From Mobula hypostoma (Eukaryota): DNA of 64,000 nt. Positions 8,573 to 51,886 of the stretch are shown piece by piece. Below the pieces are notes generated by a model. It was not told the origin of the DNA and did no database searches. It was given only the letters and a program-made list of their open reading frames with translations. The stretch's first letter is position 1. Each line of letters begins with the position of its first letter. The stretch is taken from positions 40,302,001 through 40,366,000 of the forward strand of contig NC_086108.1 in the NCBI RefSeq assembly GCF_963921235.1, given 5' to 3'. Position numbers and translations under genes: made by a program.

Positions 8573-8602
8573 GTTCAGTCAGTCCAACCCCGAGAAAAGA
8601 GA
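8573..8602 (+). CDS. PTPRC: CD45 exon 3 equivalent, (G)SVSPTPRKE
   Basis: ttctttcag|GTTCAG...AAAGAGA|gtaagt; 30 nt, phase 1-1; resembles human GQSPTPSPT. Confidence 0.8.
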
Positions 8603-11600: not shown

Positions 11601-14600
11601 AAATTGAGATCACTTACTTTTACACATTTACAGATTAAAGCTCAACTTTATTTGTCACTTGTATGTTGAAGCGTCGAAACATACAGTGAAATGCCACATT
11701 GTGGCAAAGACCAACACAGTCTGAGGATGTGTTGGCGGTGGGAGCAGCCTGAAATGGTTGCATTGCTTCCTGTACAAACATAGCATGCCTACAACTTACT
11801 AGCCCTTTCTCATATGTTTGAACTTAATGAAATATTTAGGTGCTTGATGCAAAATTTGATTAACCAAACAATGACCTCAACACAATTTATATTACTTGTA
11901 ATTAATTGTTGTTCAACTGGATGTGATGCCTCTTCTGTTTGATTGATGATCTTCCCTTCATTTTGTCTTGTTTACGCCCACATTCAATCTAACTGCAGAA
12001 GACTTGGACCTGAGTTGACAAGCTCAGTTGATATCTGTGGACAACCATTTCCAAGGAGAATGGCATCATCTATTCCTTCCCAGTTAGTAGTGAAGTCTAG
12101 GCTGTGGTTTCTACCTCTGCAAGTGTGGCATTACTCCTCACACTGCTGTTTTTCAAACAGATGACTTACACCTCACACTCACCAGCATAGCTCCACTATC
12201 AGTGACGACTTCATTCACAACAGGTTCAAGTATATCCATAGTGATGGACAACTTTTTGATTTAAAGTTAAAATGGATATGAATCATAATCAAGTACCCAC
12301 TATTTATTCCCTTTATCTGTTCTTTTTTCAATGATGGCAACATCATAAAGGATGTTAAGACACTGAGAAAATAATTTCATCCCATTATTAATCAGCAGCT
12401 GTTTGTTCAAACTGCATAAATTCTGCTCTTTTCCCCATTTTCACCTTAATTCTAAGCACAGACAGCTGCAATTCAGGTGAACTTTTCCATTTTCATTTTC
12501 CATATTTCTTTGAAAATGCAAGATATAAGTTACAGAAAATTAATGCAAAAAGTAAATATACTTTTTAATGCCAAATAAAGATTGGTTTGTAAGGAAAAGC
12601 TGACTTAACCACATTGAGGTATGAATAGCATCCCAACATGATATTTGCTGGTAGAAACCATCTTAAGTACTTTTCCCTGATTTGTTAAGTTTCTTATTGG
12701 CTCGCTCTTTACAATGTGAATGAAATGTTCTTTAGACCAATAAACAAAGGATTTGCTCAATATTATCTTACTCTTTTATAGAATTTCCTACTGGCTTTCC
12801 TCTATGAAGTACTTTATCATATAAAATACTTTATGAAAGCTATAATTGACTGGATTCTGCAGTGTGGCTAAGCATTTCCTGCTCTTGCAAAACCAGATCA
12901 ACTGTCCTCAATGCAGAAATCCAAAGGATATTGCCAGAGATCATTGTGTGCAGTTCTGGTCACTCTTTTATAGGAAGGACGTGTAAAGGTGCAGAATAAG
13001 TATCCCAGGAGTTTGCCTGGATTAGAGAGTAGGAAAAGTTGGACAAACATGTCGTCTTCTCCCTAGAGCATTGGAGACTGAGGGAGACCTGAAGGATGAT
13101 TTTAAAACTGTGCGAGGTACAGATAAGCTAGACAGTCAGAATCATTTCCCCAAGGTCGAAATGTGAAGCACCAGAGGACATGATATTATGGTTACAGTGT
13201 TAAAGTTTAAAGATGACATGGGGGCCAAGTTCTTTACACAGAGTGGTAGGTGCCTGGAAAGAGCTACCAGATGTAGTAGTGGGAGCAGGCAGTTCCATGT
13301 TGAAGAATAATCAGCTTCAGTTGAAATCTGTGGGCAACTGTATGCAATGAGAATTATATGAGCCGTTCCTCTAGAGCTTGTAGTGAAGTCTCTGCTTTTG
13401 TTTCTATCTATTCTGATATCGTATGTATTATTCCTCTCACTTTTGTTCTTCCAGCAGGTCACTCAGCATTCACATCCACCAGCACAGCTTCTTCATCAGT
13501 GCACACTTCAACTGTAGCAGGTTCAAGTAGGTTCATGGCGATAAAGTTGTTTTTATCAAGATGTTTTATATTTAATTCCAAATCTTTACAAAGTGTATTG
13601 ATTGTTCTTATTTTTCAATAAAATCACCAACTTCAGTCCACCTCCAGGTACCGTCGTCAGTGCTATGAAGCCCAGTTAGAGTGTGTTACCTCTCAGAGGA
13701 GAATGCTGTAGAAACTACGTGCCCTCAATGATTTGGTGGAAAGTTACAGAATGACTGTAGAATAGAAGCGTATAGTAGTACTGAAGAACTCAATTTGATG
13801 AATCCATCAGCAGCTGCTGTTTGTTTAAACTATTTAAATAATCCCATACTTCTGCTCTTTCTCTTTGGTTACCTTGATTTCATAGAGGCAATGGCAATTA
13901 AGGCTGAAACTACCTGTTTTCATGATCTGTGGTAATTAGGCAGAAGTCTAAAATGAAGGATTCCAAAAAGAGCTATGTTAGACAAATTTTAATATCGTGC
14001 TTAATGTCAAAAAATGTACTTAAATTAGTTTAATCCCATCAGGTTGAAAAAGAAGCAGTCATTGGAGCCCTAAACTGTTGGGGAAAAATAATGTATATTA
14101 TGGTTCAGTCTGAAATCCAGCCACCGGTTTCTGTGTGTTAAGGCAGTGCCCCTCACACACTTTAGTTCTTCCACTTTTCACCCATACTCACAGGCATTGG
14201 ACACCAGCAGTTACTACTACATTCACAACAGGCTTCTGCAAGTCCACAGAGATGCAATGGCTTTTCAGTTTCAAATTAAGATGTGTAAGAAGTGCCTACA
14301 ATGTATTATTGTCCAAGTCTAAGTTTCTTTCAAGGATATAAATTGGAGGCATTTCTAGACAGTTTGGTTGTGGCTGAGAAGCACAGTTTAAATGTGTTGA
14401 CAGCCATCTGTGGAGGAGAATGGTGTAAATAACTCCCTCCCGCTCTATAGTAAAGAGAATATTGTAGTTTCCTTCTGTTCAGATGTGGCACGCATTGCTC
14501 ATCACGCTTTTGTTCTTCCAGCAGATCATTCATCACGCACACTCACCAGCACAGCTTCACCATCAGTCACTACTTCATCTGCAAAAAATCCAAGTAGGTC

Positions 14601-17600
14601 CACAGAGGTTCCCCAGTTGTTTTTTAATCAAAATGCTTAAAAAAACAAATAGCCGCAATATATTATCTTTGAGGACAATGCGTCAAGTCATCCAGCTTTT
14701 CTTGTTGGAAGCATGTCTACATTGATGATACATTATGAATGAGAGTGGTCTTGTAACCTGGGTTTTGCTGAGCATCAATGGCTCCCACTCAACAAGACTG
14801 AAATCACCTCTGGTATTAATAAATACCCTGCTAAATGCAGAAACCTTCAGCTTATTAGCAATCTTTCCCTGATCTTCGGCAGTTTGGGATTACTGGCTCT
14901 ACGTGTGGAACCTCTAGAAACCCATTTTCAAATGTGACTTGAAAAAAGTTACCCATCTTGTTATCATACTGAATACCAGTGTAAAGTCATGGTAACTACT
15001 TCTTTGAGAAGTTGCATGTAAGTGCAAAATAGTGTAGAAGGTGTAAATCTGAAATAAGAAGAATTCGCCATTTTCTTAGCTCATTAGGAAACAACCATGG
15101 AGAATTTTGCTGAAATAATGAATTTGATCATTTCTAATCTGCTCTCTGTTTGCTGCATTTTCTGATATTAAACTGAAAGAACTTCTGACCAATAACTCCA
15201 GGTTTCTCAGGAGAAATGATGCTTCAGGTATTTTAAAATGCCAGAATTTACCTTAAGTTAAAATTTAATATTTGTTCAACATGTACTTCATAATAGAGTT
15301 TCTAGGATTCAACCTTCATTATATTCCTTGGAGCAATGATGGAAATATGACTTAGATTGCATTTTAACTTTTATTTTGCTCTTTGTGTAGCCTCTTCACT
15401 GATTGGTTGATGCCCAATTGTGCTTTCTACTTGTCATACTCACATCAAATTTAGTCTTTCATCAGCAGGCTTACTCAAAACTAATCAAGTTCAGTTAAAG
15501 TCTGTGGACAACTGTTAGCAATGAGAATGATGTGAACGATTCCTGAAGAGTTAGACGTTCATTCCTATCTATTCAGGTATCCCATGCATTATTCCTCTCA
15601 CATTTGATCTTCCTACAGGTCACTCCTCACTCACATTCACCAGCACGGCCTCTTCATCAGTGAACATCTTATTTATAGCAGGTTCAAGTAGATCCATAGA
15701 GATGATCTTGCTTTTTATTTTTAAATCCCAATCTTCAGAAACCGTATGTGCAAGATGTATTGACATTCTTCTAAACCCTTAATGATACCTAATTCAATCT
15801 TTCTCCAGATCCCATACAGGGTGCTAACATGCTGAGTTGCCTTGCAGAGGAGAATGCTGTACAAATCACATGTCCTCAACAATTCAGTGGGATTTGATAA
15901 TTACATAATGATTATAGAATCATAAAGAATAATATAGCATTGAAGAGTTGGTGAATTAATCAGCTGTAGCTTTTTGTTTAAGCTGTTTATATAATCCCAG
16001 TCCTCTGTTCTTTCCCTGTGGTAACCTTAATTTCACAGAGAGAGCAGCAATTCAAGTTGAATTTTTCCATATCTGTACTATATTGACGGAAATCTAAAAC
16101 AAAAGGATCTAAAAGGATTTGGGTTTTTAAGTCACATGGATGTTAATATATTGGTTAATGTCAAACAAAGGCTTATGCAAACTTGTGTAATGACATTGAA
16201 AATCAAGTCATCTGAACCTCATTTATTTGGGGTGGGGGAATAATGCATCTGAAGATTTGGTCTGAAACCCAGCCTGTGGGTTGCATGTGTTGAGGTGTAC
16301 CAGGCACTACTCCTCACACTTTAGATTTTCACTCTTCAATCGCACTCACGGCCACTGGCCACCAACACTACTACATTCAAAGCACGTCCCTGATTGTCCA
16401 CAGAGATGCACTGGCTTTTCATTTTCAAAATCAAATGCATAATAAGTGCCCAGAACTTATTGCTGGCATGTAATTTTCCCTTAAGGATGCAAATTAAAAT
16501 CATTCCCAGACTGTTTGTATTGTGCTGAAAAGCACAGTTAAAGTACATTGAGGACCATTTGAGGTGGAGAGCGGTGTAAATAGCTCCTTCCCACTTTATA
16601 GCACAGTGTTGGTTGTAGTTACTTCCTTTCTGGCTGTGGCATGCATTACTCTTCAGTTTTCTGTTCTTCCTGCAGATCTCTCATCACTCACACCCACCAG
16701 CACGGCTCCACCAGCAGTAACTATTTCATTTGCAAAGGTTCCAAGCAGGTCCACAGAGATATCACAGCTTTGTGTTTTAAAATCCTAATGTTTATAAAAC
16801 AAATGGCTGCAAACTATTGTCTGTATCAGGTTTTCGGTGAAAAGCACCAAATTCAAACTACCTTTAGAAAGTTTTGTGACAAGCTGAATAAAACCACTTG
16901 CAAAGGGAAAATCTGAAAATCCATTCCATCCTGCTTTACAGCAAAGACTGGGCTGTGGTTTCCAGCTTTTCAGGTATGGTATTACAGCTCACACTCATTT
17001 CCTTCCAACAGTGACTACTTCAATCACAACAGCCTCAAGTAGGTCCACCGATTACAACAGGTCGTGTCTGTAATGTTTTGATAAGATTTGATTTTCACGA
17101 AATGATGTCAGAATCAAAGTGAATTATTTTTGCTCAATCAAAAGATTGAATGATATTTTAAATGTAATATTTTTTCTCATTCAACATGATTCTGTTTGGA
17201 TTTCGTTAGACATTGTGAAGAAAATATTCTCTACATCGCAATGCACGGAGAATACAAATGATTGAGACAAAATGTTTGGTGTATTTATCTTTACTGTATG
17301 CAACATCGTATGGATTTTCTTGTTTGATGTACTTCTACATTGGTAATACTTTAGAAATGACAGTGTTCTTGTTGCCTGGGTTCTGCTGAACACTTATAGC
17401 TGCAACTAAACAAGACCAATAACATCTCTGGCATCAACAAAAGCTCTATTAAATGCATAAGTCTTTAGGTTATCAGCAACTTTGCACCTTTGGGATTACC
17501 ATCACTGCATGTAGAACCTCTGTAGAAATTCATTTTCAAATGTGACCTGAAGCAAATTGCACTAAATAACAGTTTAGGGTAACAAGATCATCAGGAAGTT

Positions 17601-20600
17601 ACATGTAACTGCAAAATAGTGCAGGTGGTGAAAATCTGAAATAAGAAATATTCTGCTAATCAGGAGGCATCCACAGAGAGTTTTGCTGAGGGATTAATGA
17701 TTTTGATTATTTCTGATCCTGGCTGTGTCTGCAAAATTCCCTTATATTAAATTAAAGGAACTTCTGAAAAATAAGCTGCGGTAAACCTCTGTTAATGTGT
17801 GTTGCCTCGCAGATGAGAATGCTGTACAATCCACATGCACTCATTATTTCAGCAGGATTTAATAATTACAAAATGAGTGTAAATTTTGAAAGGATAATGC
17901 AGGGTGGAACTATTTATTTTATAGAATCCATCAGTAGCTGCTGTTTGTTTCATCTTTTTAAATCATCCCATTCCTCTGCTTGTTCCTAGTGCTCAATAAA
18001 ACATCTACATTTCGGGCTAAATCTTTTTCTGTCCTTTTTTTTTGGGTGGGAATCATTTAAATCTGAGGTGCACGAACAACATTCTCTCAAGGGGGGAGCA
18101 AATCTCTGGAATTCTTTACCCCAGAGGGTTGAGAAGGTTAGATCATTGGAGGTATTTACAGAGGAAGTAGATAAAGTTTGGGAAATGGAGAGCTGTGAAG
18201 ACCTAACACAGAAGGGGACTTGAGACTGAGGGAGACCAGCCAAGATCATATTGATTGGCTGGGGAGATTTAAGAACCCAAGCTACCAAATCCTGATCCTG
18301 CTATATTATGTTGAATGCCAACATTTAGTTTTAAGTAGACCTTATCTTTATTCTTAATATCTTTAATATAATTCTCTAGCTGTATCCCGACCTTTATAAT
18401 GGCCCATATGGAACAATCTCCAGGGGTTCCCAACCTAGGGTCCAGGGACCCTTTGTTTAATGGTATTGGTCCATGGCATAAAAAAAGGTTGGGAACCCCT
18501 GATCAGTATAGTTTTCTATATTGCTCGTTTTTACCTGCTTCTTCTATCTGACTGGTTGATAACCTTTCTTTCCATTTTTTAAATTTCAAAATATACTGTA
18601 TTCAAAAATAAATATATACTATAAACCATTCAATAACTTTCCATCATTTACATACGTTTCCATTATAGTCAGTACATATCCGTATTTATAGCCACCCATG
18701 TGGCACTCCGGTAGTTCAGCTTACCATATCATTGTTGAGGGGTATACTCCCCGCCTCCCGACCCCTCCCACTCCCATGGGTGGAGAAACCTATACTGTGG
18801 TCCTTCCCCACCGGGCCCTTGCGGTGGCTGCACCGAGTTTCAGTGCTTCCCTCAGCACGTACTCCTGCAGCCGAGAATGTGCCAGTCGGCAGCATTCTCC
18901 CACGGACATCTCCATGTGCTGGTAGATCATCAAGTTTCGGGCCGACCAAAGAGCGTCTTTCACCGAGTTGATGATCTGCCAGCAGCACCGGATGTTGGTC
19001 TCCGTGTGCACCGGGAACAGCCCATAGATCAGAGAGTCCTCTGTTACGCAGCTGCTGGGGATGAAACCTGACACTAGCCCGTCCATCCTCCTCCACACCC
19101 TCTTTGCGAACTGGCAGTGTGCAAAGAAGTGGGTCACAGACTCCTCACTGCAGTCCTCCCGTGGGCAGTGGGGTGCGGAGACGACGTTCTGGGCGTACAG
19201 GAGGTCTCTGACTGGGAGGGCCCCTCTCACCGCCAGCCAGGCGAGGTCTTGGTGCCTGTTGGTGAGATCTGGCGATGAGGCATTTTGCCAGATGAACTGG
19301 ACAGTCTGCTCAGAGAACCACCCCACTGTGTCCATCACGTCCTTCTCCTGCAGTGCCTGCAGGACATTACGTGCTGACCACTGCCCGATGGCCCTGTGGT
19401 CAAAGGCGTTCTCCTGGAAGAACTTTGCTACGTAGGACAGGTATGCCGGCAACGACCAGCTGACTTTCTTTCCATTTGATTTGCTAAATGAGGCCGTGGA
19501 TCCTCTCTTTGAAAATGCCCAATGTAACAGCAAAAGATCTGGTTCATGCTGATAATCCTTTTAAAGATGGTGGGCAACCATTTGTAAGAATACTGTTTGC
19601 CATTTCTTTATACTTTATAGCAAAGCCTAAGCTACTGTATAACATTTGTATATTCGGTTGTGAGATGCATTAGAATTCTCGCTTTTGTTCTTTGAGGTAA
19701 TCAGTTAGCACTCATATCCACCAGCATGGCTCCAATAACAGTCACACCAGGTTTAAGTATGCTTTGTCAGCAGATTGTCTCCATCTAATCATCTGATGTT
19801 TGTTATCCAATTATTACTTTATTACTCAGACTTTTTTTCTGCTTAATTTTCCTTCTACTGCACTCTTGATGGGAGAAAATCCATGCGTTTTCAAGGTAGC
19901 TGGTGCTTAGTTTACCATGGAAAACGATGTTTATGTAATTCCTTTCAAAGAGTTTACAAGTATAAAGCAAAAGGTTTTATTAAACTTGAGTTTAAATGAG
20001 ACAGGAAATTGTAATTCCCAGTTTAGAGCTTCCACCAGGTTTCTAATTGATCATAACCATTAGTGAGTGACTGCTTTATTCACTCAATATATATGCATAC
20101 TTTTTTACTGCAACATTTCATCAATATTGATGGCTGATGACCAGTAGCATGAATGTCCTTGTTAAATTGTACCATTTTGAATGACCTTTCACAGCATCTC
20201 TGCTACTTTGAGACCACGAGTTTCTATTTATAACGGAAACATTATATCATCCACACCACTACAATAACCAGAATACTGGAATAAATAGCCAAGTTCTTCA
20301 CAAGGCTAAATCTGTATTAATTTAGCTAAGAAAACAATGTGTTACTACTTTCAGTAATTCTATTTGGATTTCTAAGTGATTGTTGATAAAATGCTTGTAC
20401 ATACAATTGTAATATATATTGCTGCTTAGGGTTCAGTTTCTCCTTTAGATTACAGCCTTTGTCCACAATTCAACCAAAAGAAATTACTTTCAAAAGGCTT
20501 GCTTGCATCAATCTGGCCTTTCTACATGGTACACAGCATGGATTTGATGGATCTGAGCCATCATATTAATATTTCATTTTGGCTTTTATAGCCTTGAGTT

Positions 20601-23600
20601 TTGGTCTTCCAGCAGTTCACTCCGACAACTATTTGTAAGGAGATTGGTGTAAGCAATTCTTTAACAGTTTATAGCAAAGCTGAAGTGTTGGTAAGTGTAT
20701 GGTCATGCACTTTGGCAGCAGAAACAAAAGAATAGACTTCTTTTAAAATCGGCAGAAAGTTCTAAAATGTGAGGTGCAAATGGCCATGGGAATCCTCGTG
20801 CAGGATTCCCTAAAGGCTAACCCATAGTTGACAACTCTTCTTGCACCCGTGGCAGTTCACAATAGAAGAAATACTCTGGTGTCCCAGGTGATATAGGGCA
20901 CGCATTTCATGGGACTGGGAATTTCTACTGATATTTCCATTTGTGGCATGTATTTTCACTCACTGTTTTCTTTATCCCGCAGATCACTCTTCACTCACAT
21001 ACACCAGCACGGCTCCATCAGTAACCACAACTAGTGCAAGTATGTCCATGAATAGTTCTAACTCTGACATCAGTATTTCTGTGCAACACACACAAAATGC
21101 TGGAGGAAATCAGCAGGTCAGGCAGCATCTATGGGAATGAATGGACAGTCGAGGTTTCAGGTGGAAACCCTTCTTCCAGTATTTTATATGTGTTGCTCTG
21201 GACTTCCAGCATCTGCAGAATATCTTGTGTTTATCACTATTGATATCCCCAATGAATTTACATCACCTCTAACATTTTTATACAGCCCCTTTGTTGTTCT
21301 GATAATGTTTGCATCACTATTTACCATATGACTAGAACGTCCTCTACATCCATTGAGAATCACAGCATTGAAGAGGTGATTCAAAAAACTAATTCTTTTA
21401 GGCTAAATTGGCACTTGAGACTTTTAAAAATAAATTTCTAGGTTTGCCCGATTGAATTATCCTTGTATTATATTCATTGTAAATGACTGATTATATAATG
21501 TTTATAAGTATATTTCGGGCACAGACCATTACTCCTGTACAGACCATTGGTCTTTGATTACATCCTGTAAATGGTGCATCAGCAATAACCTTCATTAAGC
21601 TTCATTTATCTTTATGGAAACACATCATCTTCTTATTTTGGTACCACAAGGTATACGTCCTATAGTGTATTGACGAGGAAGTGTTGGGGACTGAGGGGAC
21701 TGAGGGGCCTGTTCCATCTCACTATGTCGTAACCAGTTGTTTGTCACAATGTTCAATTGGTCTTATTCTTATAGACTTTCTCCATTTGTATCTTCTTACT
21801 AATCATGGGCAATTGTAGTTATTACCTCAAAGTAGTCTGCTGGAAAGACACCTTATGTCACATGCCAGTGATAATAAACCTGATTCTGATTCTCTATTGA
21901 GGGCCTGTCCTTTCACCTCCTCCCTTCTTGATATCCTAAGACACTCACAGTGTGCCACAAATATTCTCAAGGTAAAGTACATTGGTTCAGTGATGAAACC
22001 ATTCCTGCTCACATCTATTTCCAGAGCATAAGCCTGAGGAGAAATCAAAGGAGACCTGTTGGGCTGGTCTCCATTCTGTTTGGAATTGTTAGTGATTCTT
22101 GATAAAATGCTTGTACATGCAATTGTAATACATCTTGCTGTTCATGGTTTAGTTCTCCATTAGATCAGAGCCTTTATCCACAATCCAACCAAAAGAAATA
22201 GTTGTTACTAATTTCAAAATGTTTGCTTGAATGAAATGTGGTCTTTCTACATTGTACACAGCATGCACTTGTTGGGTCTGAGTCATCATTTAAATATTTC
22301 ATTGCAGGTTATGTAGCTTTAGTTAGCTTTGGTCTGCCACTCAGATAACTGTTCGTGAAGAGATTGGTGTAAGCCACTCTTTAACAGGTTATAGCAAAAC
22401 TTATGTTGGGACGTGTATGGTCATGCACCTTGGTAGAAGAAATAAAAGCATAGACTATTTTGTAAATGGACAGAAGTTTCAAAGATCCAAGGTGCAAATG
22501 GTCCTGGATGTCCTCGTGCAGGATTCCCTAAAGGTGAACTTGCAGACTGAGTTATTGATGAGGAATGCAAATTTAATGTTAGTATTTGTTTTGAGAGAAT
22601 TAGAATGTAAAAGCAAGAATGTACTGCTGAGGTTTATAAGGCATTGGTCAGACAACACTTGTGGCATTGTGAGCAACCATGGACTTCTCATCTAAGAAAA
22701 GATGTGCTTACATTGGAGAGGGTTTAGAGGAGGTTCACCAGAATGATTTTGAGAATGAAAGGGTTATCCTATCGGCAGAGTTTCATGGCTCTGTGACTGT
22801 ACTCACTGAAATTTAGAATACTGTCTGGGGATCTCATTGAACTATCAAATTTTGAAAAGCCTACATGGAGTAGATGTAGAGAGGATGTTTCCTATCAAAA
22901 CTATCGTAGGGGTAGTCTTGAAACAAAGGGTACAGCATCACAAGAGGAGGACATTGATTGAGAATGGAAATGAGGAGGAATTTCTTGAGCCATATGGTAT
23001 TGAATCTGTGGAATTCATTGCCACAGACAGTTGTGGAGGCTCGGGCACTGGGTACATTTGAGGTGGAGATTGATAGGTTCTTGATTAGTCAAGCCATAAA
23101 GATTGCAGGTAGAAGGCAGGAGATTGGGGCTGAGAGAGAAATGGATCAGCCATGATGAAATGGTGGAGCAGACTCAGTGGGCCAAATGACTTATTTCTGC
23201 TCCTATATATTATGGTCTTACGAAATGTCGGAGCACATTTGATGGGCTGAATAGATTAATTCTGCTCCTCTCTCTTTTTGCCTTATGGTCTTGGGCTGTT
23301 TGGCGTGCACTGCACTTCCCACTATTTTTCTTCTGACAGATCACTCAGCACTTACAGCCACTAGCACGGCTTCTTCATCAGTGAACACTACATTAACAAA
23401 TGGTTCAATATGTCCACAGGGATGATCCTGTCTTACATATTTAAAGCAATATGTTAAAAAAAACTGCATGCTAACAATACATTGACAGCATCTAACATTA
23501 ATTTAAAGGCAGCTAATTTAGTATATTACCGTACGAGTTTTGCCATGCAGACAAGTTCAGTTAAATCCTGTTGATAACCGTTTGGAAGGTGAATGGTATA

Positions 23601-26600: not shown

Positions 26601-29600
26601 TAGATGTAGAGAAGATGTTTCCCATAGTAGGGGTAGTCTTGAAACAAAGGGTACAGCATCACAAGAGGCAGACATTGATTGAGAATGGAAATGAGGAGGA
26701 ATTTCTTGAGCCATATGGTATTGAATCTGTGGAATTCATTGCCACAGACAGTTGTGGAGGCCCGAGCACTGGGTACGTTTAAGGTGGAGACTGATAGGTT
26801 CTTGATTAGTCAAGCCATAAAGATTACAGGTAGAAGGCAGGAGACTGGGGCTGAGAGAGAAATGGATCAGCCATGATGAAATGGTGGAGCAGACTTGATA
26901 GGCCAAATGACTTAATTCTGCTCCTATATATTATGGTCTTAGGAAATATCAGAGCACATTTGATGAGCTGAATAGATTAATTCTGCTCCTCTCTCTTGTT
27001 GCTTTATGGTCTTAGGCTGTATGGCGTGCACGATTCTTCCCACTTTTTTCCTTCTGACAGATCACTCAGCACTTACAGCCACTAGCACGGCTTCTTCATC
27101 AGTGAACACTACATTAACAAATGGATAAGTATGTCCACAGTGTAAATCCTGTCTTGCAGATTTAAAGCAATATTTAAAGGCAGCTAATTTAGTCTATTAC
27201 CAAATGGCTTTCTCTATGCACTCAAGCTTCGTTAAATCCTGTTGCTAACCATTTGGAAGGTGAGTGGTGTAAGGCATTCCTTCTCAGTTCACAGTGAAGC
27301 TGATGATGTGATTTCTATCTGTCTGGATGTTACATGCACCTCTTCTCACATTTCTGATCTCCCAACAGCTCACTCGTCACGCACATCCACCAGCATGGCT
27401 CCTTCAGCAGTGAATACTTCATCGGTATCAGTATCAGTCACATCCACGGAAGCTGCTAACAGTGGCAAGTTCTCTCAAAGCAATTTAGGAATTTTAACTG
27501 CCATGTACTATTTGTGATGAAAATATGCCATTAAATTTGGTAATTATAATATCCCAATATTAACCTCACCATTTCTACTCCTTCCTTAATTTTTTGTTGC
27601 CCGTAACATTGCCCATAAACTTGCTCTTCAACTTCCCTCAACAGTCTCACTCCCAGCATACTTATTTTCCATAGTTATCAGTTCAACTTCCTCACTAATT
27701 GTCTTTCTAACATCCATTCTCACAACTATGGTTGTTTATTGATCCATTATTGTAATCTCTCCTTCTTTATAACCCCCTCCCCCCAGTTCACGCAAAAGTC
27801 TATGACCATCTGTGTAGTTCTCGATCAACATACTTCGACATGTCTATCAGAGCCTTTGCTTATCTGCCTCATGCCTCTCACACCATTAGATATTTGCTAT
27901 TCCATTCTCATCATTTTAAATTCCTTACCTGTTTCTTACTAATTTTCAGGCTAAAATTTTCATGCCTGCTTTCCCCCTTCTGAACATCTGCTCAGTTTCT
28001 CCTTCCCCTGACAAACTCATTTCAATAGTTTCCAGTGGCACCAGAAAATTTGTGAAGATTTTGATGCCAGCCTACTAAGACACAACCCATTTGGCATATA
28101 TATGTTTCAACTTCCCCAGACTGTTCCTAATATCCCGATAGTTTAAGACTCACTTTCCTGCACCATCTCTACAACCATTCATTCATCTGAACAATGTTTC
28201 TATTTCTGTACTCACTTGGCTACACTGTGGTGATGAATTGAATGATTACAATGTTTAAGGTCCTGCTCATAATCTCTTTCTTATTGTCTCTCTACATCAC
28301 CTTGTCCTGTTTCCCTACTGTACTGAATGCACTGATATGAGTATTGACAGCTGGCTATCAGCTGCTCAGTGATACCACGAAGTTGGTTGCAAGGAGGCAA
28401 CATGCTGTTTTCTGAACAGGTCCATCTGCCACAACTATCTTATCAAGGTATTGAAGTCTTGTCCATACCACTCCCTTTATTTGGAGACGACCTTCTCAAG
28501 TTACCTATCTTCATGGCTCTGGCCTCACTCGACAGGAGAATTTATTCTATCATCTGTATTCAGAATGAACTACTGATTAGGGCTATGGATGCCCTTAAAG
28601 GACCTCCTAACTTAACTGCCTATTCAACTTTGCTTATCTAGCAATCACCAACTGCCTCTCTGGCTGCATTACCTTGAGCTTACAGGGTAGCTATATCCTG
28701 AAATGTGGTCACCAAGATGTATTCTAGAGTGAACTCAGATCTTGAGCTAACCCGCAATTGACCACACTTCCTGCACCGGTGGCCGTTCAGAATACAAGAT
28801 ATTCTTTGGTATCCCAGGTGGTGTACGGCACACATTTCATAGGACTGGGCATTTTTAATGATACTTCTGTTAGTGGCATGTATTTTCACTCACTGTTTTC
28901 TTTATCCCGCAGATCACTCTTCACTCACATACGCCAGCACGGCTCCATCAGCAACCACAACCAGTCCAAGTATGTCCATGAATAGTCCTAACTCTGACAT
29001 CAGTATTTCTGTGCAACACACACAAAATGCTGGAGGAACACAGCAGGTCAGGCAGCATCTATGGGACTGAATGGACAGTCAAGGTTTCAGGTGGAAACCC
29101 TTCTTCCAGCATTTTATATGTGTTGCTCTGGACTTCCAGCATCTGCAGAACTTCTTGTGTTTATCAGTACTGGTAGCACACGGATAGGATTGATATCCTA
29201 TCGATATTGACTTGGATGTGTTGGGAACTGAGCGGTTTGTTTCATTTCATTGAATTGTAACCAGTTGTTTGTCACAATGTTCAATTGGTCTTACTCTTGT
29301 GGACTTTCTCCGTTCTTGTATCTTCTTACCAAACATGAGCAATTAAAGTTATTACCTCAAAGTAATTCTGCTGGAAAGACAACTTATGTATAGAGGGCCT
29401 GACATTTCACGTCCTCCCTTCCTGAGTTCCTGAGACACTCATAGTGTGCCACAAATATCCTGAAGGTATTTTGATGAATAGTGCATTGGTTCAGCAATGA
29501 AAGCATTTCTGCTCACATCTATTTCCAGAGCATAAGCCTGAGGAGAAATCAAAGGCGACCTGTTGTGCTGGTCTCCATTCTGTTTGGATTTGTAAGTGAT

Positions 29601-32600
29601 TGTCGATAAAATGCTTGGACGTGCAATTGTATTATATCTTGTTTCTCCATTAGATCATAGCCTCTGTCCACATTTCAACCAAATAATTACTGTTATTATT
29701 TTCAATAGGCTTGCTTGTATAAAAACTGGCCTTTCTACATGGAACAGAATGCATTTGATGGTTCTGAGCTGTCATATTACTATTTCATTTCAGGTTATAT
29801 AGCTTTAGTTAGTTTTGGTCTTCCAGCCAATCACTTCATAAGGCGATTGGTGTAAGCCATTCTTTAACAGTTTATAGCAAAACTAATTGTTGGGAAGTGT
29901 ATGGTCATGCACTTTGGTAGAAGAAATAAAAGCATAGACTATTTTGTAAATGGACAGAAGATTCAAAGATCCAAGGTGCAAATGGTCCTGGATATCCTCA
30001 TGCAGGATTCCCTAAAGGTAAACTTGCAGATTGAGCTATAGATGAGGAATGCAAATTTAATGTTAGCATTTGTTTTGAGAGGATTAGAATATAAAAGCAA
30101 GAATGTACTGCTGAGGTTTATAACACATTGGTCAGACGACACTTGTGGTATTGTGAGCAACATTGGACCCCTTATCTAAGAAAGGATGTGCTTACATTGG
30201 AGAGGGTTCAGAGGAGGTTCACCAGAATGATTTTGAGAATGAAAGGGTTATCATATAAGCAGTGTTTCATGGCTCTGTGACTGTACTCACTGAAATTTAG
30301 AAGAATGACGGGGGGTCTCATTGAACTCTCTCAAGATTCTAAGGCCTACATAGAGCAGATGTAGAGAGGGTGTTTCCTGTAGTAGGTGTAGTCTTGAAGC
30401 AAATGGTACAGCCTCAGAAGAGAGTGACATTCATTTAGAATGGAGATGAGGAAGAATTTCTTCATCCATATGGTAATGAATCTGTAGAACTCGTTGCCAC
30501 TAGCAGATGTGGAGACCCAGGCATTGGGTGCATTTAAGGTCGAGATTGATAGGTTCTTGATTGGTCAAGCCATAAAGATTGCAGATAGAAGGCGAGAGAT
30601 TGGGGCCAAGAGAGAAATGGATCAGCCATGATGAAATGGCGGAGCAGACTCGATAGGCCAAATGATTTAATTCTGCTCCTATATCTTATGGTCTTATGAA
30701 ATGTCAGAGCAGGTTTCATGGGCTGAATAGCCTAATTCCGCTCCTATCCCTTATTGCAAGTTGACAACACTTCCTGCACCCATGGCAGTTCAGAATCGAA
30801 GATGTACTCTGGTGTCCCAGGTTGTGTAGAGTACGCATTTCATGGGACTGTGTATTTTTAATGATATTTCCATTTGTGGCATGTATTTTCACTCACTGTT
30901 TTCTTTATCCCGCAGATCACTCTTCACTCACATACACCAGCACGGCTTCATCAGTAACCACAACTAGTGCAAGTATGTCCATGAATAGTTCTAACTCTGA
31001 CATCAGTATTTCTGTGCAACACAAAATTCTGGAGGAAATCAGCAGGTCAGGCAGCATCTATGGGATTGAATGGACAGTCGAGGTTTCGGGTGGAAACCCT
31101 TCTTCCAGCATTTTATATGTGTCGCTCTGGACTTCCAGCATCTGCAGAATCTCTTGTGTTTATCAGTACTGACGTCCGGTTTCTGCTAACAAATTTGCAT
31201 GCACTCTTCAATGAATTTACTTCACCTCTAACCTTTTTATACAGCCTCTTTGTTGTTTTGATAATGTTTGCATCTCTATTTACCACATGACTGGAACGTC
31301 CTCTACATCCATTAAGAATTACGGCATTGGATTCAAAAAAACTAATTCTTGGAAATTATTTTAAATGCATTTCAAGGTTTGCTGGATTGAATTATCCTGA
31401 TGCTATATTCATTGTAAATGATTGATTATATAATGTTTATAAGTATACTTCTGGTACGCATCATTACTCCTGGGTTAGATTACTCTTCATTTACATCCTG
31501 CTCAATGGCTCCATCAGCAATGACCTTCATTAAGCTTCATTTCTATTTACGGAAACACATCATCTTCTTGTTTTGGTACCACAAGGTATACATCCTGTAG
31601 TGTACTGAGGCGGATGTGTTAGGGTCTGAGGGGCCTGTTTCATCTCACTAAGTTGTAACCAGTTGATTCTCACAATGTTCTATTGGTCTTACTCTTGCAG
31701 ACTTTCTCCATTTGTATCTTCTTACCTCAAGGTAGTCTGGTGGAAAGACACCTTATGTATTCAGGGCTTGTCCTTTCACCTCTGCCCTTCCTGACATCCT
31801 GAGACACCCATAGTGTGCCATAGATATCCTAAAAGTATTTTGATGAATAGTGCATTGGTTCGGCAATGAAAGCATTTCTGCTCACATCTATTTCCAGAGC
31901 ATAAGCCTGAGGAAAAATAAATGGAAATCCGTTGTGCTGGTCTCCATTCTGTTTGGATTTGTCAGTGATTGTTGATAAAATGCTTGTACATGCAATTGTA
32001 ATATATCTTGCTGCTCATGGTTTAGTTTCTCCATTAAATCACAGCCTTTATCCCCAATCCAACCAGAATAAGTTACAGTCATTATTTTCAAATGCTTGCT
32101 TGCATGAAATTTCACCTTTCTGCATGGTACACAGCATGCATTTGATGGGTCTGAGTCATCATTTAAATATTTCATTACAGGTTATGTAGCTTAGTTTTGG
32201 TCTTCCAGCCGGTCACTCAGACAACTGTTCGTAAAGAGATTGGTGTAAGCCATTCTTTAACAGTTTATAGCAAAGTTCATTGTTGGGAAGTGTATGGTCA
32301 TGCACTTCGGTAGAAGAAATAAAGGCATAGGCTATTTTGTAGATGGACAGAAGATTCAAAGATCCAAGACGCAAATGGTCGTGGGTGTCCTCGTGTAGGA
32401 TTCTCTCTTGCAGATTGAGTCAGTGGTGAGGAATGCAAATGCAATGTTGGCATTTATTTTGAGAGGATTAGAATATAAAAGCAATGTAAGAATGCTGCGG
32501 CTTTGTAAGGTATTGGTCAGACAACAACTGGAGTATTGTGAGCAACTTTGGAACCCTTATCTAAGAAAGGATGTGCTGGCACTGGAGAGGGTGCAGAGGA

Positions 32601-35600
32601 GATTCATGAGAATGACTTTGAAAATGAAAGGGTTATTATATGAGGAGTGTTTCATGGCTCTGTGATGATACTCACTGAAATTCAGAAGAATTGGGAGGGT
32701 GGTATCATTGAATCTGATCAAATTTTGAATGGCCACATAAAGTACATGTAGAGAGGATGTTTCCCATAGCGGTGGAGTCTAGAAGCAAGGGGTACAGCCT
32801 CAGAAGAGAGAAACATTCATTTAGGATAGAGACGGGGAGGAATTTCTTCAGCCAGTTGATGGTGAATCTGTGGAATTCATTGCCACAGCTGTGGAGGCCA
32901 TGTCACTGGGTGTATTTAAGGCTGAGTTTGATAGGTTCCTCATTAGTCAAGCCATAAAGATTACATGTAGAAAGCATGAGATTGGGGCTGAAACAGAAAA
33001 AGATCAGCCATGATGTAATGGGAGCGCAGACTTGAATCGCCAAATGACTTAATTTTGCTCCTATATCTTATCGTCTTATGAAGTGTTGGAGCAGACTTGA
33101 TGGGCAGAATAGCCTTATTCTGGTCCTATTTCTTGTTGCCTTATAGTCTTAGGCTGTATGGCATGCACTATTCTTCCCACATTTTTTCTTCAGACAGATC
33201 ACTCAGCACTCATAGCCACTTGCTCGGCTTCTTCATCAGTGAACACTGCATTATCAAATGGTTCAGTATGTCAACAGTGATAACCCAGTCTTATATATTT
33301 AAAGCAATATGTTAACAAATCGCATGCCTAAAATCCATTGACAGCATCTGACATTAATTTAAAGGTAGCTAATTTAGTCTATTTCCATACGACTCTCTCT
33401 ATGCAGACAAGTTTAGTTAAATCCTGTTGATAACCATTTGGATGGCGAATAGTGTATGGCATTCCATCTCAGTTCAGAGTGAAGCTGAGGATGTGGTTTC
33501 TATCAGTTTGGATGTTGCATGCGTCTCCTCACATTTCTGATCTTCCAACAGCTCACTCATCACTCACACTCACCAGCACGGCTTCTTCAGCAGTGAATAC
33601 TTCATCAGTATCAGTATCAGTATCAATATCAGTAAAAGCCACGGAAGCTACTAATATTGGCAAGTTCTCTCCATGCAATTTAGGAATTTTGACTGCCCTG
33701 TACTAATTGTAATGAAAATATGCCATTAATATTACGTAATTAAAATGTTCCTATATTAACCTCACCATTTCCACTCCTCCCTTATGTTTTTATGTTGCTC
33801 ATAACTTTGCCGATAAATGTGCACTTCAATTTCCCTTGACAGTCTCACTCCCAGCATTCTTTTTTTCCTTCTCATCAGGTCACCTTCCTCACTGATTGCC
33901 TTTCTAACATCTCTTCTTACATCTATGGTTGTTATTAACCCATTATTGTCATCTCTCCATTTTTTTTACCCTCCCCCCAGTTCCGTCATAAAGTCTATAA
34001 CCATCTGTGTTGTTCTTGATTGCCATACTTCCACAGGTATATCAGAGCCTTCACTTATCTGCCTCATGCTTCTTACAACATTAAATATTTGCTATCCCAT
34101 TTTGGTCATTTTAAATTCCTTACCAGGCTCTTACTAATTTTCATGATAACATTTTCATGCCTGCTTTCTCCCTTCTCAGCATCTGTTCAGTATCTCCTTC
34201 TCTTACAAACTTATGTAAATAGTTTCCAATAACATCAGAAAATTTGTGAAGATTTTGATCCCAACCTACCGAGATGCAACCCATTTGGCATATATCTGTT
34301 TCAACTTCCCTAGACTGTTCCCAATATCTCAATATCCGAATAGTGTAATGCTCACTTTCCTGCAGCATCTCTCCCACCATTCATTCATCTGTACAATGTT
34401 TCTATTTCTGTACTCACTTGTCTACACTATTGTGATGAATCCAATGATATCAATGTTTGAGGTCCTGCTCATAATCTCTTTTTTATTGTATATCTGCATG
34501 ACTTTGTCCTATTTTCTATCTATACTGAATGCACTGATATGGGTCTTGACTCCTGGCTGTCAGCTGCTCTGTAATACCATCACGTTGGTGCCAAGGAGGA
34601 AACATGCTGTTTGGAATCATGTCCATCTACCACAACTATCTTGTCGAGCTATTGAAGCCTTGTCCATTCCCCTCCTTTTATTTGGAGTCAAGCTGCTCAA
34701 GGCACTATTTTCATGGCTCTGGCCTCACTTTGCAGGAAAATCTATTGTCCCATTAGTATTCAGAATGGAGTATGATTCGGGCTATGGGTGCCCTTAAAGG
34801 ACCCCCTAACCTACCTGCCTATTCAACTTTGCTTATCTAGCGATCACCCACTCCATTTCTTGCTGCTTTTTCTTGAACTACAGGGTAGCCACATCCTGAA
34901 ATGTGGCCACCAAGGAATGTTCCATGCTAATCTCAGAGCCTGAGCTAACCCAGGGTTGACAACACTTCCTGCACCTGTGGCAGTTCAGAATCCAAGAAGT
35001 ACTCTGGTGTCCCAGGTGGTGTACGGCACACATTTCATGGGACTGGGCATTTTTAATGATATTTCCTTTAGTGGCATGTATTTTCACTCACTGTTTTCTT
35101 TATCTCGCAGATCACTCTTCACCCACGTACTCCAGCATGGCTTCAACAGTAATTACAGCTAGTCCAAGTATGTTCATGAATAGTTCTAACTCTACCATCA
35201 GTATTTCTGCGCAACACACACAAAATGCTGGAGGAACTCAGCAGGTCAGGCAGCATCTATGGGAGTTAATGGACAGTCAACGTTTTGGTTGGAAATCCTT
35301 CTTCCAGCATTTTATATGTGTCGCTCTGGACTTACAGCATCTGCAGAATATCTTGTGTTTATCAGTACTGATGTCCGGTTTTTGCTACCAATTTTGCATG
35401 CACTCCTCAATGAATTTACATCACCTTTAACATTGTTATACAGCCCCTTCATTGTTTTGATAATGTTTGCAACTCTATTTACCACATGACTAGAATGTCC
35501 TCTACATCCTTTGAGAATCACAGCATTGAAGAGGTGATTCAAAAAACTAATTCTTTTTAGGCTAAATTGGCACTTGAGAATTGTTTTTAATAAATTTCAA

Positions 35601-38600
35601 GGTTTGCCAGATTGAATTATACTCTTCATTTATATCCTGCTCAATGGCTCCATCAGCAATTACTTTCATTAACCTTCATTTATATTTACAGAAACACATC
35701 GTCTTGTTTTGTTACCACAAGTATTAACTCAGATGCGTTGGGGACTGAGGGGCTTGTTTCATCTCATTAAGTTGTAATCAGTTTTTGGTCACAGTGTTCA
35801 ATTGGTCTTACGCTTGTAGACTTTATTTGTATCTTCTTACCAAACATGGGCAATTGAAGTTATTACCTCGAAGTACCGAGGTGGAAAGATACCTTGTGCC
35901 AAGTAGCAGTCACTGATTACAGTGTAGGAGAAAAGGATAAGTAAATTATTATGGCCAGCACCACCAGAAAATAGATTACTGGTTCTTCCCCTTGCCTGCC
36001 AGGATAGATAATTATTGCCACGTAACAACTTTTGATAGCAATTACTAACAAATATCCTTAACATGCCATAATGCTGTGAACCGGAGAAGAACAAAATTGT
36101 TTGAAAGACAACTAACATATCCAATTTCAAAACCAGAAAGTTAATCTTTGAGAAGCATGTTTAGCCAGCTAATTAAGAACATCCAATTGTGGCTTATATG
36201 TCGGAAAAAGACACTTTACCATTCAATTACCCAAAAAAATTGAAAAATCATGAAATTCAAAAATTGTGAAGGAGTAAAGAGCCTTGGGTTCAATGAACAC
36301 CTTGTCTTGTTATTCTTTGTTTTAAATTAAGATATGTCAAGACTTTAGTAATTTCGTTTTTGAAGCAAACTTTATCTAAGTTGGAAAAATGTTCATTAGA
36401 AACAGAAAATCTGATGTTCAACTCATTAGAAGCAAACACTGAAGAGGGCAATCCCTGACAAATCAAATTTGGGTAGGAAATGGACAAAATCCAACTCTTA
36501 CCTTAGCAGGCCTCTCCTTCACATCACAATAAATATCCAGGTTTCTAATGGAGAAATGTATGGCATATCATCCTATCAGAAAATTGTTAGGTTTTGAGAA
36601 TGCCTGTCTATTTTTATGTCATTGATGCATTTATTAACACCAACCATTATTATCTGGCTCTTCCAACAGATTTCACATCACTCAGCAGTTCTGGCACCAG
36701 CGCAAAAGCAGCAACTACTCAGTTCTCAGAAAACTCAACAGGCACGCTCTACTTTCATATTTGGTTACTGAACTGGGTACTTCTCCCACAGAACCAATAA
36801 CGCAGCACCTGACTGGCACCAAATGAGCAATCACATCAAGGACCTGCACTTTTCTATAGCAATGTCATCGCAGTTAAACATCTCATGGCATTTGACAGGA
36901 GACAAAAAATGTTGAAGATATTAAGGGCATTTTCAGTGAAGTGATCACTATTTTGCTCACGAGAGTAGTATGGAACTAAGAAAGGACAAATGCAGAGAGC
37001 TTAAGGGAAAGGATTCCAGACTTTTGGCAGCTGAACTTGTAGCAACAGAAATGGAGAATGAATGAACTGAAGATGAAGAGCAGAGTATTCAAGAATAGGG
37101 TGGGGTGGACAGTTGAAGAGAAAATGAATCGGGAACAAATTTTAACCTAAGAGCTTATGTAAGTCTTGGAGGAGCTATGAGATGTGTGAATGAGGCTAAA
37201 TCCCTGTTAAAATGTGACTATCAGAATAAAGAATCCTTAGAGTTGTGGAGATCAGAAGACAGGTTGCTTATCAGCAACAAATCAAAATGGTCAATTATAG
37301 GGTGGCATAGCTATGAAAGATGGCTTCAGCAAAAAATGAGATGAGGCAGGGAAGAAAATGTTAAGATGTAGGCTATTTTAGTAATAAGTTAAATATGGAC
37401 TTCTAAAGACTTCCTAGATTTAAATTGAACATCAAGGTTGTGAATGGTTTGGAAGCGGAATGGACTGCATGACTAGGAAATGAAATTTCAAATTCATTGA
37501 CCAATTTCAATGGTTTTGGACTTCCCAATACTTGGAAGAAAGTTCTGCCCACCAGCTCTGGATGATGGACAGGCAGCCATTTTATTTCCATACTGCACTT
37601 ATCAATGATTTTTCATGTTTATAAATGTTCTCTTCTTTTCACTACAGGAAATTAGGGCTAGCTTGATTCATTGTTATAAAAATAGAATATTGGTATTACT
37701 TTGCCTATATCTCAATGTTTCTGGTATAATGTGACATAGATATTTTATGGTGAAAGTTATACTGATTCTATTGCTTGAAAAGAAAGGTTCTTGGTACAAA
37801 ATGGACGTCTTTAATCTATTACTGTAAAAGAACTGCTGACTTCTAATGACTTGAAACTAGATTAACAAAACACCACTCCATTCAATCCATTCATAGCATC
37901 AACAGCAATTTTCCTGCAATACCACAACATACCTAACTGGGGTTACAGGAACTCCTGGTATCTTTGTTAATAGATTTATCAAAGTTGAAGTTTAGTTTTG
38001 GTCACCTACCTACAGGAAAGATGTGAACAAGTTTGAAAGAGAACAGAGAAAATTTACAAGGATATTGCCAGGTCTGGAGGACCTGAGTTATAAGGAAAGA
38101 TTGAAAAAATCTGGACTGTATTTCTTAGTATGTAGAAGATTGAGGGGAGATTTGATAGAGGTATACAAAATTATGAGGGGTACAGATAGAATAAATGCAA
38201 GCAGACATTTTCCACTGAGGTAGGATGAGACTACAACCAGAGGTCATGGGTTAAGGGAGAAAGATTTAAGGGGAACATGAAGGGAAAATTCAATCAGAGG
38301 GTGATCAGAGTGTAGAATGAGCTGCCAGCACAAGTGGTGCATGTAAACTCGATTTCAGTTTCAATGGTTTTGGCATGGACTAGATGGGATGAAGGGCCTG
38401 TTTCTGTACTGTGCTTCTCTAAGACTCCTTTACTTATAATCAGATTATATTTCAAAATACAATGTTCTTCAAATTTAAGGCTTATGGTAGGTAGCTTAAA
38501 TTTTGATCTGATGCCTAGATGCAGGAATTTTTAGTGGCTTATCTGACAATTTGAGTTACCAAGGGAACCTGCGATAAAATGCGAGTGGTCTGTAGAGGTA

Positions 38601-41600: not shown

Positions 41601-42303
41601 TCTACCTTCAAACTTACTGCAGTTACTATTCTGTAAACTTGGCCCATATGAAAGAAATGCAATGTGTTTGTATTTAAACTGCCAAATGTAGATGATGTAC
41701 TTAAATTTGAAAGCTAATTCAATTTTGTAACATATTGTAATCCATTTTAAATTTCAGCTTCTGGTGCTAATACTACGAATTGCAGTAAGAAAAATTTTTA
41801 TTATTTCTGAACAAAGAAAATGTGGATTAGTTTAAGTGGAATCTATTAAGTATGATTATAAAACTTAATTTATTTGCAGTGGTTACACTATATTTTGGCA
41901 CATCATATTTTGTCCTTTCCTCGCTATAAACTGACAACCTCATTTTTATTACCTAAACAAATTTGTGAAAACTATAATTAATGTACAAACGTCTAAGATA
42001 TAATTTCAGATGTACTGCTCCCAGATTTGGAAAAGAGAGGTCATTAACAACAGCCTCATCCAAAGTTTTCATATTGGAAATGGTGGCCTCTTATGCTCCA
42101 TAAATCAGTAGGGATATTGTTGAGTTACCGGTCTATCGGTTAGACTTCTTGAAAATATCTCTGAAATCTCACTATAGAAAATCTGGGTGTTTTTAACTTG
42201 ACTAATTAAATGTAAAATCTGAGAGGGATGGGCTCCGCCAGGTTTCAGATGCCCAAGTCACACCGTATGATGAGCAACACACACACACACACACACGCAC
42301 ACA

Positions 42304-51647: not shown

Positions 51648-51886
51648 TGTCATAAGGCGGTGGCTGGGAATGGACCCAAGTGCAAGACACAGACACTGAA
51701 GTACTGGAATAGGACAAGAGAGCTAGGAGCCCGGGCTTGGACTCCGAGCCAGAGACTGGACAAGGACCCAGTACCTGGGTCTTGCCTCTGGCTTGGACCC
51801 CGGAACTAGGCAAGGACGAGGCTTAGCAGGCAGGCAGGATGAGGCTGGAGTCTTCAAGCTTGAGGCTAGAGGCAAGACTTGGCAGG
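51648..51886. mobile_element. Putative LTR terminus grading into the satellite
   Basis: Abrupt start TGTCATAAGG...ggacccaagtgcaagac, then increasingly repetitive ggacaag/ggctag motifs. The other end is not in the window. Confidence 0.4.

Follow-up and report, generated by a model that had tools for sequence, protein, structure and literature searches.

The window analysed here, a stretch of 64,000 nucleotides (nt) from the devil ray Mobula hypostoma (NCBI RefSeq assembly GCF_963921235.1, contig NC_086108.1, positions 40,302,001 to 40,366,000 of the forward strand; all positions below are those of the window), is AT-rich vertebrate DNA that holds the 5′ part of PTPRC (CD45). With high confidence, we read this part of the single-copy gene as carrying 13 symmetric cassette exons for the extracellular stalk, together with seven copies that are probably unused or dead; nested tandem duplications gave rise to a family comprising 18 of these 20 (Table 1). 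The frame-neutral exons, weak donors and conserved CA-rich core of this array likely allow regulated skipping.

The gene was identified mainly at the protein level. In a protein search, the translation of the exon at 43040-43288 was 100% identical over 82 residues to the M. hypostoma RefSeq PTPRC protein XP_062919950.1, while a Mobula birostris protein matched the same exon at 71% identity. Residues 25-296 of M. hypostoma isoform X1 fitted exactly on window exons (8573-8602, 13455-13526, 35111-35167, 36670-36741, 41125-41199, 41758-41784, 43040-43288, 44576-44677 and 50199-50330). The phosphatase domains were taken from the full isoform X1 protein, the PTP-domain exons themselves lying outside the window, and this protein contained two stretches of PF00102 (Y_phosphatase; E 1.7e-148), corresponding to two tandem PTP domains. 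It also contained an fn3 domain (PF00041) at residues 403-476, scoring 29.5 bits against a cut-off of 25 and preceded by the Cys-rich domain exon (43040-43288), as in the CD45 ectodomain. Nearly all of the best 120 protein matches were named PTPRC or CD45 (two had other names and a few were unnamed or ‘hypothetical’), with elasmobranchs on top; among these 120, the Pfam CD45 family PF12567 was annotated on mammalian matches and absent from the annotation of elasmobranch ones. A Pfam scan of single ectodomain exon or open reading frame translations returned nothing useful. Since the domain-1 exon (43040-43288) gave one match in the whole genome, the gene is single-copy. It is PTPRC/CD45, as a preliminary description of this DNA had proposed. 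No signal-peptide exon was located within the window, and it must therefore sit upstream.

Twenty small exons or exon-like copies in phase 1-1 were counted in the interval from the exon-3 equivalent to the first exon of the folded ectodomain, and 18 of them form one family. The preliminary description had listed 16 cassette candidates, held to be frame-neutral (phase 1-1, multiples of three) and to lie between the exon-3 and exon-7 equivalents. All 16 were found again at the same positions, between the exon-3 equivalent (8573-8602, X1 residues 25-34) and the constitutive ectodomain exons. Their lengths total 1089 nt, every one has an open phase 1-1 frame, and each is preceded by an AG acceptor and a pyrimidine tract. 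Its list lacked three paralogs with weak or dead donors (23340, 27061 and 33198, the B copies) as well as the cassette at 41125-41199, just beyond its range. A profile of the 16 copies detected 17 strong paralogs, exclusively on the + strand (E 8e-23 to 2e-17, with one at 3e-11), and matched the 27-nt (17012) and 72-nt (36670) exons weakly (E 0.02 and 0.05). A mechanical scan for Ser/Thr-rich, phase 1-1 segments between AG and GT yielded 18 acceptors on the + strand and 3 on the – strand, against 1.0 on average over 20 Markov resamples. When one cassette was compared with the 3.5-Gb assembly, 8/8 matches fell within the PTPRC locus. The paralogy of the cassettes is far beyond chance.

Thirteen of the 20 are real cassettes, namely 13458, 14525, 16676, the five 57-nt exons, the three 96/108-nt exons, 36670 and 41125, and 11 of these 13 come from the single repeated family. 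Each cassette adds 19-36 Ser/Thr-rich residues to the N-terminal stalk, Ser and Thr together making up ~50% of the N-terminal variable region. The other seven, namely 12161, 15619, 17012, 19697 and the three B copies, probably go unused or are dead.

An origin by tandem duplication was borne out by a repeat finder, which revealed two tandem blocks at 12.1-36.8 kb. The first (12.1-16.8 kb) consists of five copies of a ~1.1-1.3 kb unit, whose starts lie 1297, 1067, 1094 and 1057 nt apart, and the second (20.7-35.5 kb) of ~4.5 copies of a ~3.75 kb three-exon unit, with spacings of 4176, 3754, 2003 and 4195 nt. In the first block, the second 69-nt exon pairs most closely with the fourth and the third with the fifth, and faint relics of the family occur ~680 nt past the second and fourth 69-nt exons (14142-14212, E 0.004; 16301-16359, E 0.002). 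Together, the relics and the pairings suggest that the first block may have grown via duplication of a ~2.16-kb three-exon unit.

The use of the cassettes was followed in the RefSeq isoforms of both Mobula species, 23 in total (all 8 of M. hypostoma and 15 of the 20 of M. birostris); comparisons across species were all made at the protein level. In M. hypostoma, six cassettes (13455/13458, 28913, 30916, 35111, 36670 and 41125) occur in 8 combinations over the 8 isoforms, including X8, in which every cassette is skipped and the 27-nt constitutive exon directly follows the exon-3 equivalent. The blocks of the longest M. birostris isoform, X1 (1444 residues), matched the 13 window cassettes one-to-one and in order, with 16/18 to 22/22 residues shared. 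Over the 15 M. birostris isoforms, the 13 orthologous cassettes appeared in 13 distinct inclusion patterns, every cassette but the 75-nt one being skipped at least once and four being skipped singly (X4, X5, X7 and X8). The copies at 12161, 15619, 17012 and 19697 and B1-B3 were found in 0/23 isoforms.

The alternative inclusion proposed in the preliminary description is thus present in the gene models of both species, which include and skip cassettes. Its figure of 2^16 variants has to be lowered to an upper bound, since only 12 of its 16 cassettes are supported by models or transcript (12161, 15619, 17012 and 19697 are not). The independence of skipping that it assumed stood for the single cassettes left out in M. 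birostris X4, X5, X7 and X8, and did not stand for the many modelled variants that skip contiguous blocks. Such blocks might indicate that the array is a two- or few-state switch, in which contiguous stretches go in or out to yield long, medium and short forms, with the modelled isoforms overstating the diversity. We consider this somewhat unlikely. Although 8 of the 13 patterns equal the full form minus one contiguous run (X10, X14, X15, X16, X17, X18, X19 and X20), M. hypostoma models are mainly short forms, and gene-model pipelines chain junctions never observed together, a switch of this kind does not account for the internal cassettes skipped alone in the four M. birostris isoforms named above, nor for the inclusion of 36670 independently of 13458 in M. 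hypostoma (X1 vs X5, X4 vs X6).

Four public sequencing runs from one study, the RNA status of which is only guessed, cover part of the locus. Contigs of one of them (run X1) were aligned to 12100-32099, with 15 of 36 joints and a small part of the contig pieces listed; the exon-3 equivalent and 32100-41200, with B3, C3, A5 and the cassettes of 72 and 75 nt, lie outside the aligned stretch. Among the joints listed there was one canonical GT..AG joint, 25215->27369 (A2 to C2), while most were repeat-to-repeat joints without GT..AG ends. In addition, one contig began an exact fit at the 14522 acceptor following 30 other letters. For the other cassettes, no joint was present among the 15 of 36 listed for this run, uncovered stretches being uninformative.

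These data bear on the view that most copies are pseudoexons in M. hypostoma, where six cassettes would be functional and the long M. birostris models would partly reflect mis-placed short reads. The M. hypostoma RefSeq models indeed use only six cassettes, the 57-nt (A-type) exons differ by as few as 1-5/57 nt, which invites multi-mapping, and seven paralogs are clearly without support, one of them dead. We nevertheless judge this view highly improbable: the 25215->27369 joint splices two non-modelled cassettes together, a contig start coincides exactly with the 14522 acceptor, and the unmodelled cassettes have intact AG acceptors, open frames and conserved donors, with 17/18 to 33/35 residues identical to M. 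birostris. Moreover, stingray, shark and electric-ray models show similar long forms.

Two of the M. hypostoma isoforms, X2 and X3, start at a Met in the intron, and their frame runs through the pyrimidine tract and on into cassette A3, the third of 57 nt (together ~28843-28969), yielding a hydrophobic pseudo-leader; Leucoraja, Cetorhinus and Carcharodon models start alike upstream of a cassette. Such starts are probably artefacts of annotation from incomplete 5′ evidence, a second promoter being the less likely cause.

For a comparison with other cartilaginous fish, 66 cassettes were segmented from the longest isoforms examined of the PTPRC database models of 11 shark and ray species. The cassette family fills the PTPRC N-termini of 11/11 of these species, and per-position conservation of the core x-H-S-S-L-T-P-T-S-T-A over the 66 cassettes is 48-94% (68-94% at 8/11 positions). 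The models of Heterodontus francisci, Mustelus asterias, Hemitrygon akajei, Narcine bancroftii and Chiloscyllium plagiosum contain the same tandem cassette family as Mobula but differ from it in copy number, exon lengths and unit structure, with copies homogenised within species. The longest Heterodontus (horn shark) and Mustelus (smooth-hound) models have ~12 cassette copies, and in Hemitrygon short and long cassette types alternate as in Mobula. RefSeq isoform labels listed for these five reach X35 (Heterodontus), X35 (Hemitrygon), X34 (Narcine), X29 (Chiloscyllium) and X22 (Mustelus), with length spans among isoforms of 100-270 residues. No H-S-S or H-L-S motif was found in the one representative PTPRC isoform each of chimaera, bowfin and gar.

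The nearest relative of a cassette comes from its own species in 50 of 66 cases, so that copies were amplified or homogenised lineage by lineage. The lineage-specific expansion put forward in the preliminary description therefore stands as regards copy number and homogenisation, but the cassette family itself is common to sharks and rays and not specific to Mobula. Novelty is also lower than was then held, as RefSeq already has 8 M. hypostoma and 20 M. birostris isoforms. A literature search on non-mammalian CD45 gave, among the matches listed, no paper on shark or ray CD45 splicing; to our knowledge, the array is already in automated public annotation, and a description in print was not found.

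The donors of the 69-nt and 57-nt types have A at –1 followed by GTAGGT or GTATGT, and five cassettes (16676, the three 96/108-nt exons and 36670) have GC donors, so that the donor sequences seen in the cassettes are GTAGGT, GTATGT, GCAAGT, GCAGGT and GCACGC. By their sequence, all family donors are sub-optimal. Constitutive donors read GTAAGT or GTAAGA in 4/5 exons and GTAATT at 44576-44677. Two cassettes (a2 and a3) have tandem acceptors, both splice forms of which are modelled. At the exon junctions, the split codon encodes Asn if the upstream exon ends in A (the next beginning with AT) and Asp if it ends in G; this is seen in the proteins, where the junction residue varies with the upstream exon exactly as predicted from phase 1. 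Asn junctions create N-x-S/T sequons (N-H-S, N-L-S and N-F-T), and the choice of exons therefore changes the number of N-glycan sequons.

A conserved intronic block with GCATG precedes, by ~25-38 nt, the acceptors of the exons at 16676, 20983, 25159, 28913, 30916, 35111, 23696 and 33552. It lies at the same distance at these eight supported cassettes and is altered in most unsupported copies.

Conservation within each unit is highest over exon nt 1-38 (pairwise diversity 0.26); diversity is greater in nt 39-48 (0.42), in the pyrimidine tract (0.39) and in the upstream intron (0.51). Third codon positions of this core are no freer to vary (0.265) than first (0.30) and second (0.22) positions, and its diversity is 0.167 among supported copies vs 0.40 among unsupported ones. 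CA dinucleotides number 9-17 per exon, against a local background of 4.8 per 60 nt, and divergence between exon bodies is mostly below that of their flanks (1/57 vs 0.11-0.21 in one case). This pattern of conservation would fit an element acting at the RNA level; gene conversion could also give it.

On a rival view, the expansion would be neutral and come from tandem duplication and gene conversion within an intron rich in repeats; the cassettes would be interchangeable filler of no graded function, and conversion rather than selection would keep the core. That the nearest relative is of the same species for 50/66 cassettes in 11 species, that B1 equals B2 although B2 cannot be spliced, and that copy number ranges from 2 to at least 12 among species would all be in line with this view, which we regard as unlikely. 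Conservation of the H-S-S-L-T..S-T-A core at 68-94% per position across the 66 shark and ray cassettes would be hard to obtain via within-genome conversion alone, and the greater divergence of the core in unsupported copies is as expected if use preserves it.

For the array of used, regulated cassettes that we favour, the following mechanism can be proposed. As the cassettes are symmetric, any subset preserves the reading frame, and the stalk can therefore span ~19 to ~330 residues. The uniformly sub-optimal donors (A at –1, or GC) would make skipping possible, and the CA-rich first 38 nt present in every family member may act as an exonic splicing element. CA-rich RNA is a target of hnRNP L, and the core would then work like the silencers of mammalian CD45 exons 4-6 that are bound by hnRNP L-type proteins. 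The stalk built from the cassettes would form the O-glycosylated N-terminal region. Going further, the 38-nt core might be an exonic control element kept since the shark/ray split, through which cassettes would be repressed or released separately and stalk length and junction-coded N-glycans set by elasmobranch lymphocytes in many graded steps, against a handful in mammals, the module being independently re-amplified per lineage; we offer this extension as a speculation that may well prove wrong. The role of the stalk as a ‘length ruler’ would follow by analogy with mammalian work.

Several points weigh against these proposals. The RefSeq isoforms are automated models, in which full-length combinations are chained from short junction evidence instead of being read from sequenced cDNAs, and M. 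hypostoma itself has only six cassettes modelled. The A2-C2 pair rests on one contig joint with a depth of 12.3 and 30 letters on its shorter side, in a run of guessed RNA status, and 14525, 16676, 20983, 23696 and 33552 are supported via the sister species M. birostris. With regard to the core, the A5 exon has diverged from its paralogs as much as the introns have, CA richness could merely reflect the choice of Ser, Thr, His and Pro codons, and the even conservation of codon positions together with the identical bodies of B1 and B2 (B2 being dead) fit gene conversion equally. Finally, MCYYGCA, the mammalian ARS silencer consensus, has 0 matches on the + strand inside any cassette (50 matches in the window vs a shuffle mean of 64), and any control element or silencer must therefore differ from the mammalian one.

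The B copies were considered as a fourth used cassette type and rejected, given donors matching 4/9 of the consensus, a GA donor with an in-frame stop in one copy, and their presence in 0/23 isoforms examined. The bodies of B1 (23340-23402) and B2 (27061-27123) show 0/63 differences, while their flanks are 8-17% different and three of the six bases past the shared 63 nt differ. A recent conversion tract or an RNA-level role of an exon-like decoy are possible explanations.

Table 1. Positions of the PTPRC exons and exon-like copies in the window, with their support in RefSeq isoforms.
Feature	Position	Strand	Description
Exon-3 equivalent	8573-8602	+	30 nt; phase 1-1; constitutive; upstream anchor; donor AGA/GTAAGT; in 6/8 M. 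hypostoma isoforms, the other two beginning in an intron
a1	12161-12229	+	69 nt; profile E 2e-17; without model or transcript support (0/23 isoforms; best fit on M. birostris X1 10/22 residues); possible pseudoexon
a2	13455-13526	+	69 or 72 nt; tandem CAG/CAG acceptors (13455, 13458); 72-nt form in M. hypostoma X1 and X5; both forms in M. birostris models
a3	14522-14593	+	69 or 72 nt; tandem acceptors 14522 and 14525; 22/22 residues identical to M. birostris X1 block; in 10/15 isoforms examined
a4	15619-15687	+	69 nt; profile E 8e-21; hydrophobic 3′ half; 0/23 isoforms
a5	16676-16744	+	69 nt; GC donor CAA/GCAGGT; 22/22 residues identical to M. birostris X1 block; in 7/15 isoforms examined
Candidate micro-exon	17012-17038	+	27 nt; truncated a-type copy, its former 5′ half now forming a pyrimidine tract; 0/23 isoforms
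60-nt paralog	19697-19756	+	Profile E 3e-11; Ser/Thr 5/19 residues; donor 5/9 consensus; unsupported in Mobula; resembles the V-T-P-G-L-ending cassette type included in stingray and Narcine models
A1	20983-21039	+	57 nt; 17/18 residues identical to M. birostris X1 block; 9/15 isoforms
B1	23340-23402	+	63 nt if weak donor ATG/GTTCAA is used; 0/23 isoforms
C1	23696-23791	+	96 nt; GC donor G/GCAAGT; 27/31 residues identical to M. birostris X1 block; 9/15 isoforms
A2	25159-25215	+	57 nt; spliced joint 25215->27369; 8/15 M. birostris isoforms
B2	27061-27123	+	Dead pseudoexon: donor GA, with an in-frame stop ahead of the next GT; bypassed by the 25215->27369 joint
C2	27369-27464	+	96 nt; GC donor; acceptor of the 25215->27369 joint; 9/15 M. 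birostris isoforms
A3	28913-28969	+	57 nt; M. hypostoma X2, X3; 9/15 M. birostris isoforms
A4	30916-30972	+	57 nt; M. hypostoma X2; 9/15 M. birostris isoforms
B3	33198-33260	+	Weak donor ATG/GTTCAG; 0/23 isoforms
C3	33552-33659	+	108 nt; GC donor; 33/35 residues identical to M. birostris X1 block; 10/15 isoforms
A5	35111-35167	+	57 nt; M. hypostoma X1-X6; 14/15 M. birostris isoforms; commonest cassette in models; 18/18 residues identical between the two Mobula species
72-nt cassette	36670-36741	+	Separate single-copy type; GC donor CAG/GCACGC, exon end fixed by the M. hypostoma protein through its junction codon; M. hypostoma X1-X4, skipped in X5-X8
75-nt cassette	41125-41199	+	M. hypostoma X1-X7, skipped in X8
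27-nt constitutive exon	41758-41784	+	First Cys before domain 1; 8/8 M. hypostoma isoforms
Cys-rich first ectodomain domain exon	43040-43288	+	249 nt
Ectodomain exon	44576-44677	+	102 nt; mapped from isoform X1
Ectodomain exon	50199-50330	+	132 nt; mapped from isoform X1

Further observations concern the remainder of the protein and of the window. Between M. hypostoma and M. birostris isoforms composed of corresponding exons, 97 of the first 100 residues, which cover signal peptide, exon 3 and cassettes, are identical and the transmembrane and cytoplasmic part is 99.4% identical, whereas the folded ectodomain is only 63.6% identical. This ectodomain divergence equals that of two stingray genera whose cytoplasmic parts are four times more different (97.7%), making the Mobula ectodomain ~4-7 times too diverged relative to a cytoplasmic clock. 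On the basis of these protein comparisons, strong positive selection or old allelic lineages are suggested.

A G-rich minisatellite (31-nt unit, ~373 copies, GC content 65%, GC skew +0.54) occupies 51881-64000; it fills the intron past exon 50199-50330 over >12 kb and extends beyond the window end. Between the 27-nt and 60-nt copies, a GC-richer island at 18100-19560 carries, on the – strand, a 256-residue open frame with Cys/His-rich motifs and has very high depth in 4/4 of the public runs. The island resembles a fragment of a transposable element that is transcribed.

CD45 is the most abundant leukocyte phosphatase, and the length of its stalk in mammals is thought to influence its exclusion from close contacts, and hence antigen-receptor triggering. 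Thirteen near-identical add-on modules would give a finer and wider range of stalk lengths than the mammalian three. The array also shows ‘three variable exons’ to be the state of mammals and not a rule for vertebrates. The presence of the module across sharks and rays makes these animals a natural test bed for stalk length, glycan load and the regulation of a large cassette array. Practical value is limited, with the isoforms already in public annotation and a precedent in catfish.

The closest known system is mammalian CD45 itself, in which exons 4, 5 and 6 (RA/RB/RC) are found in the same gene and in the same place past exon 3, are likewise symmetric, and encode an O-glycosylated stalk the length of which is set by inclusion. 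PMC4730250 describes these variable exons as repressed via exonic silencers bound by hnRNP L, hnRNP LL and PSF, and PMC6170634 gives a stalk of 41-202 residues and an ectodomain of 22-40 nm for human CD45. Mobula differs in having 13 cassettes rather than 3, with 11 of them from one repeated family, and a stalk that would range from ~19 to ~330 residues vs 41-202 in human. It also has five GC donors and is without the mammalian ARS consensus in its cassettes.

A run of cassette exons in the stalk of a leukocyte surface protein is also known from CD44, in which, according to PMC4730250, about ten consecutive variable exons lengthen a glycosylated stalk through signal-dependent inclusion. CD44 is nevertheless a different gene, the exons of which are not known to form a recently duplicated family.

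An expanded set of alternatively spliced exons in a non-mammal has likewise been reported for channel catfish CD45 (Kountikov et al. 2004, Dev Comp Immunol 28:1023; 2005, Immunogenetics 57:374; 2010, Dev Comp Immunol 34:1109), in agreement with the precedent mentioned in the preliminary description. The 2004 title names thirteen alternatively spliced exons and that of 2010 reports activation-dependent isoform use; the 2005 work reportedly concerned duplicated exons and their counts. Mobula CD45 resembles the catfish case in having more than three alternatively spliced exons that arose via exon duplication (13 cassettes, 11 of them paralogous), and its host being a cartilaginous fish, the Mobula expansion is presumably independent of that in catfish.

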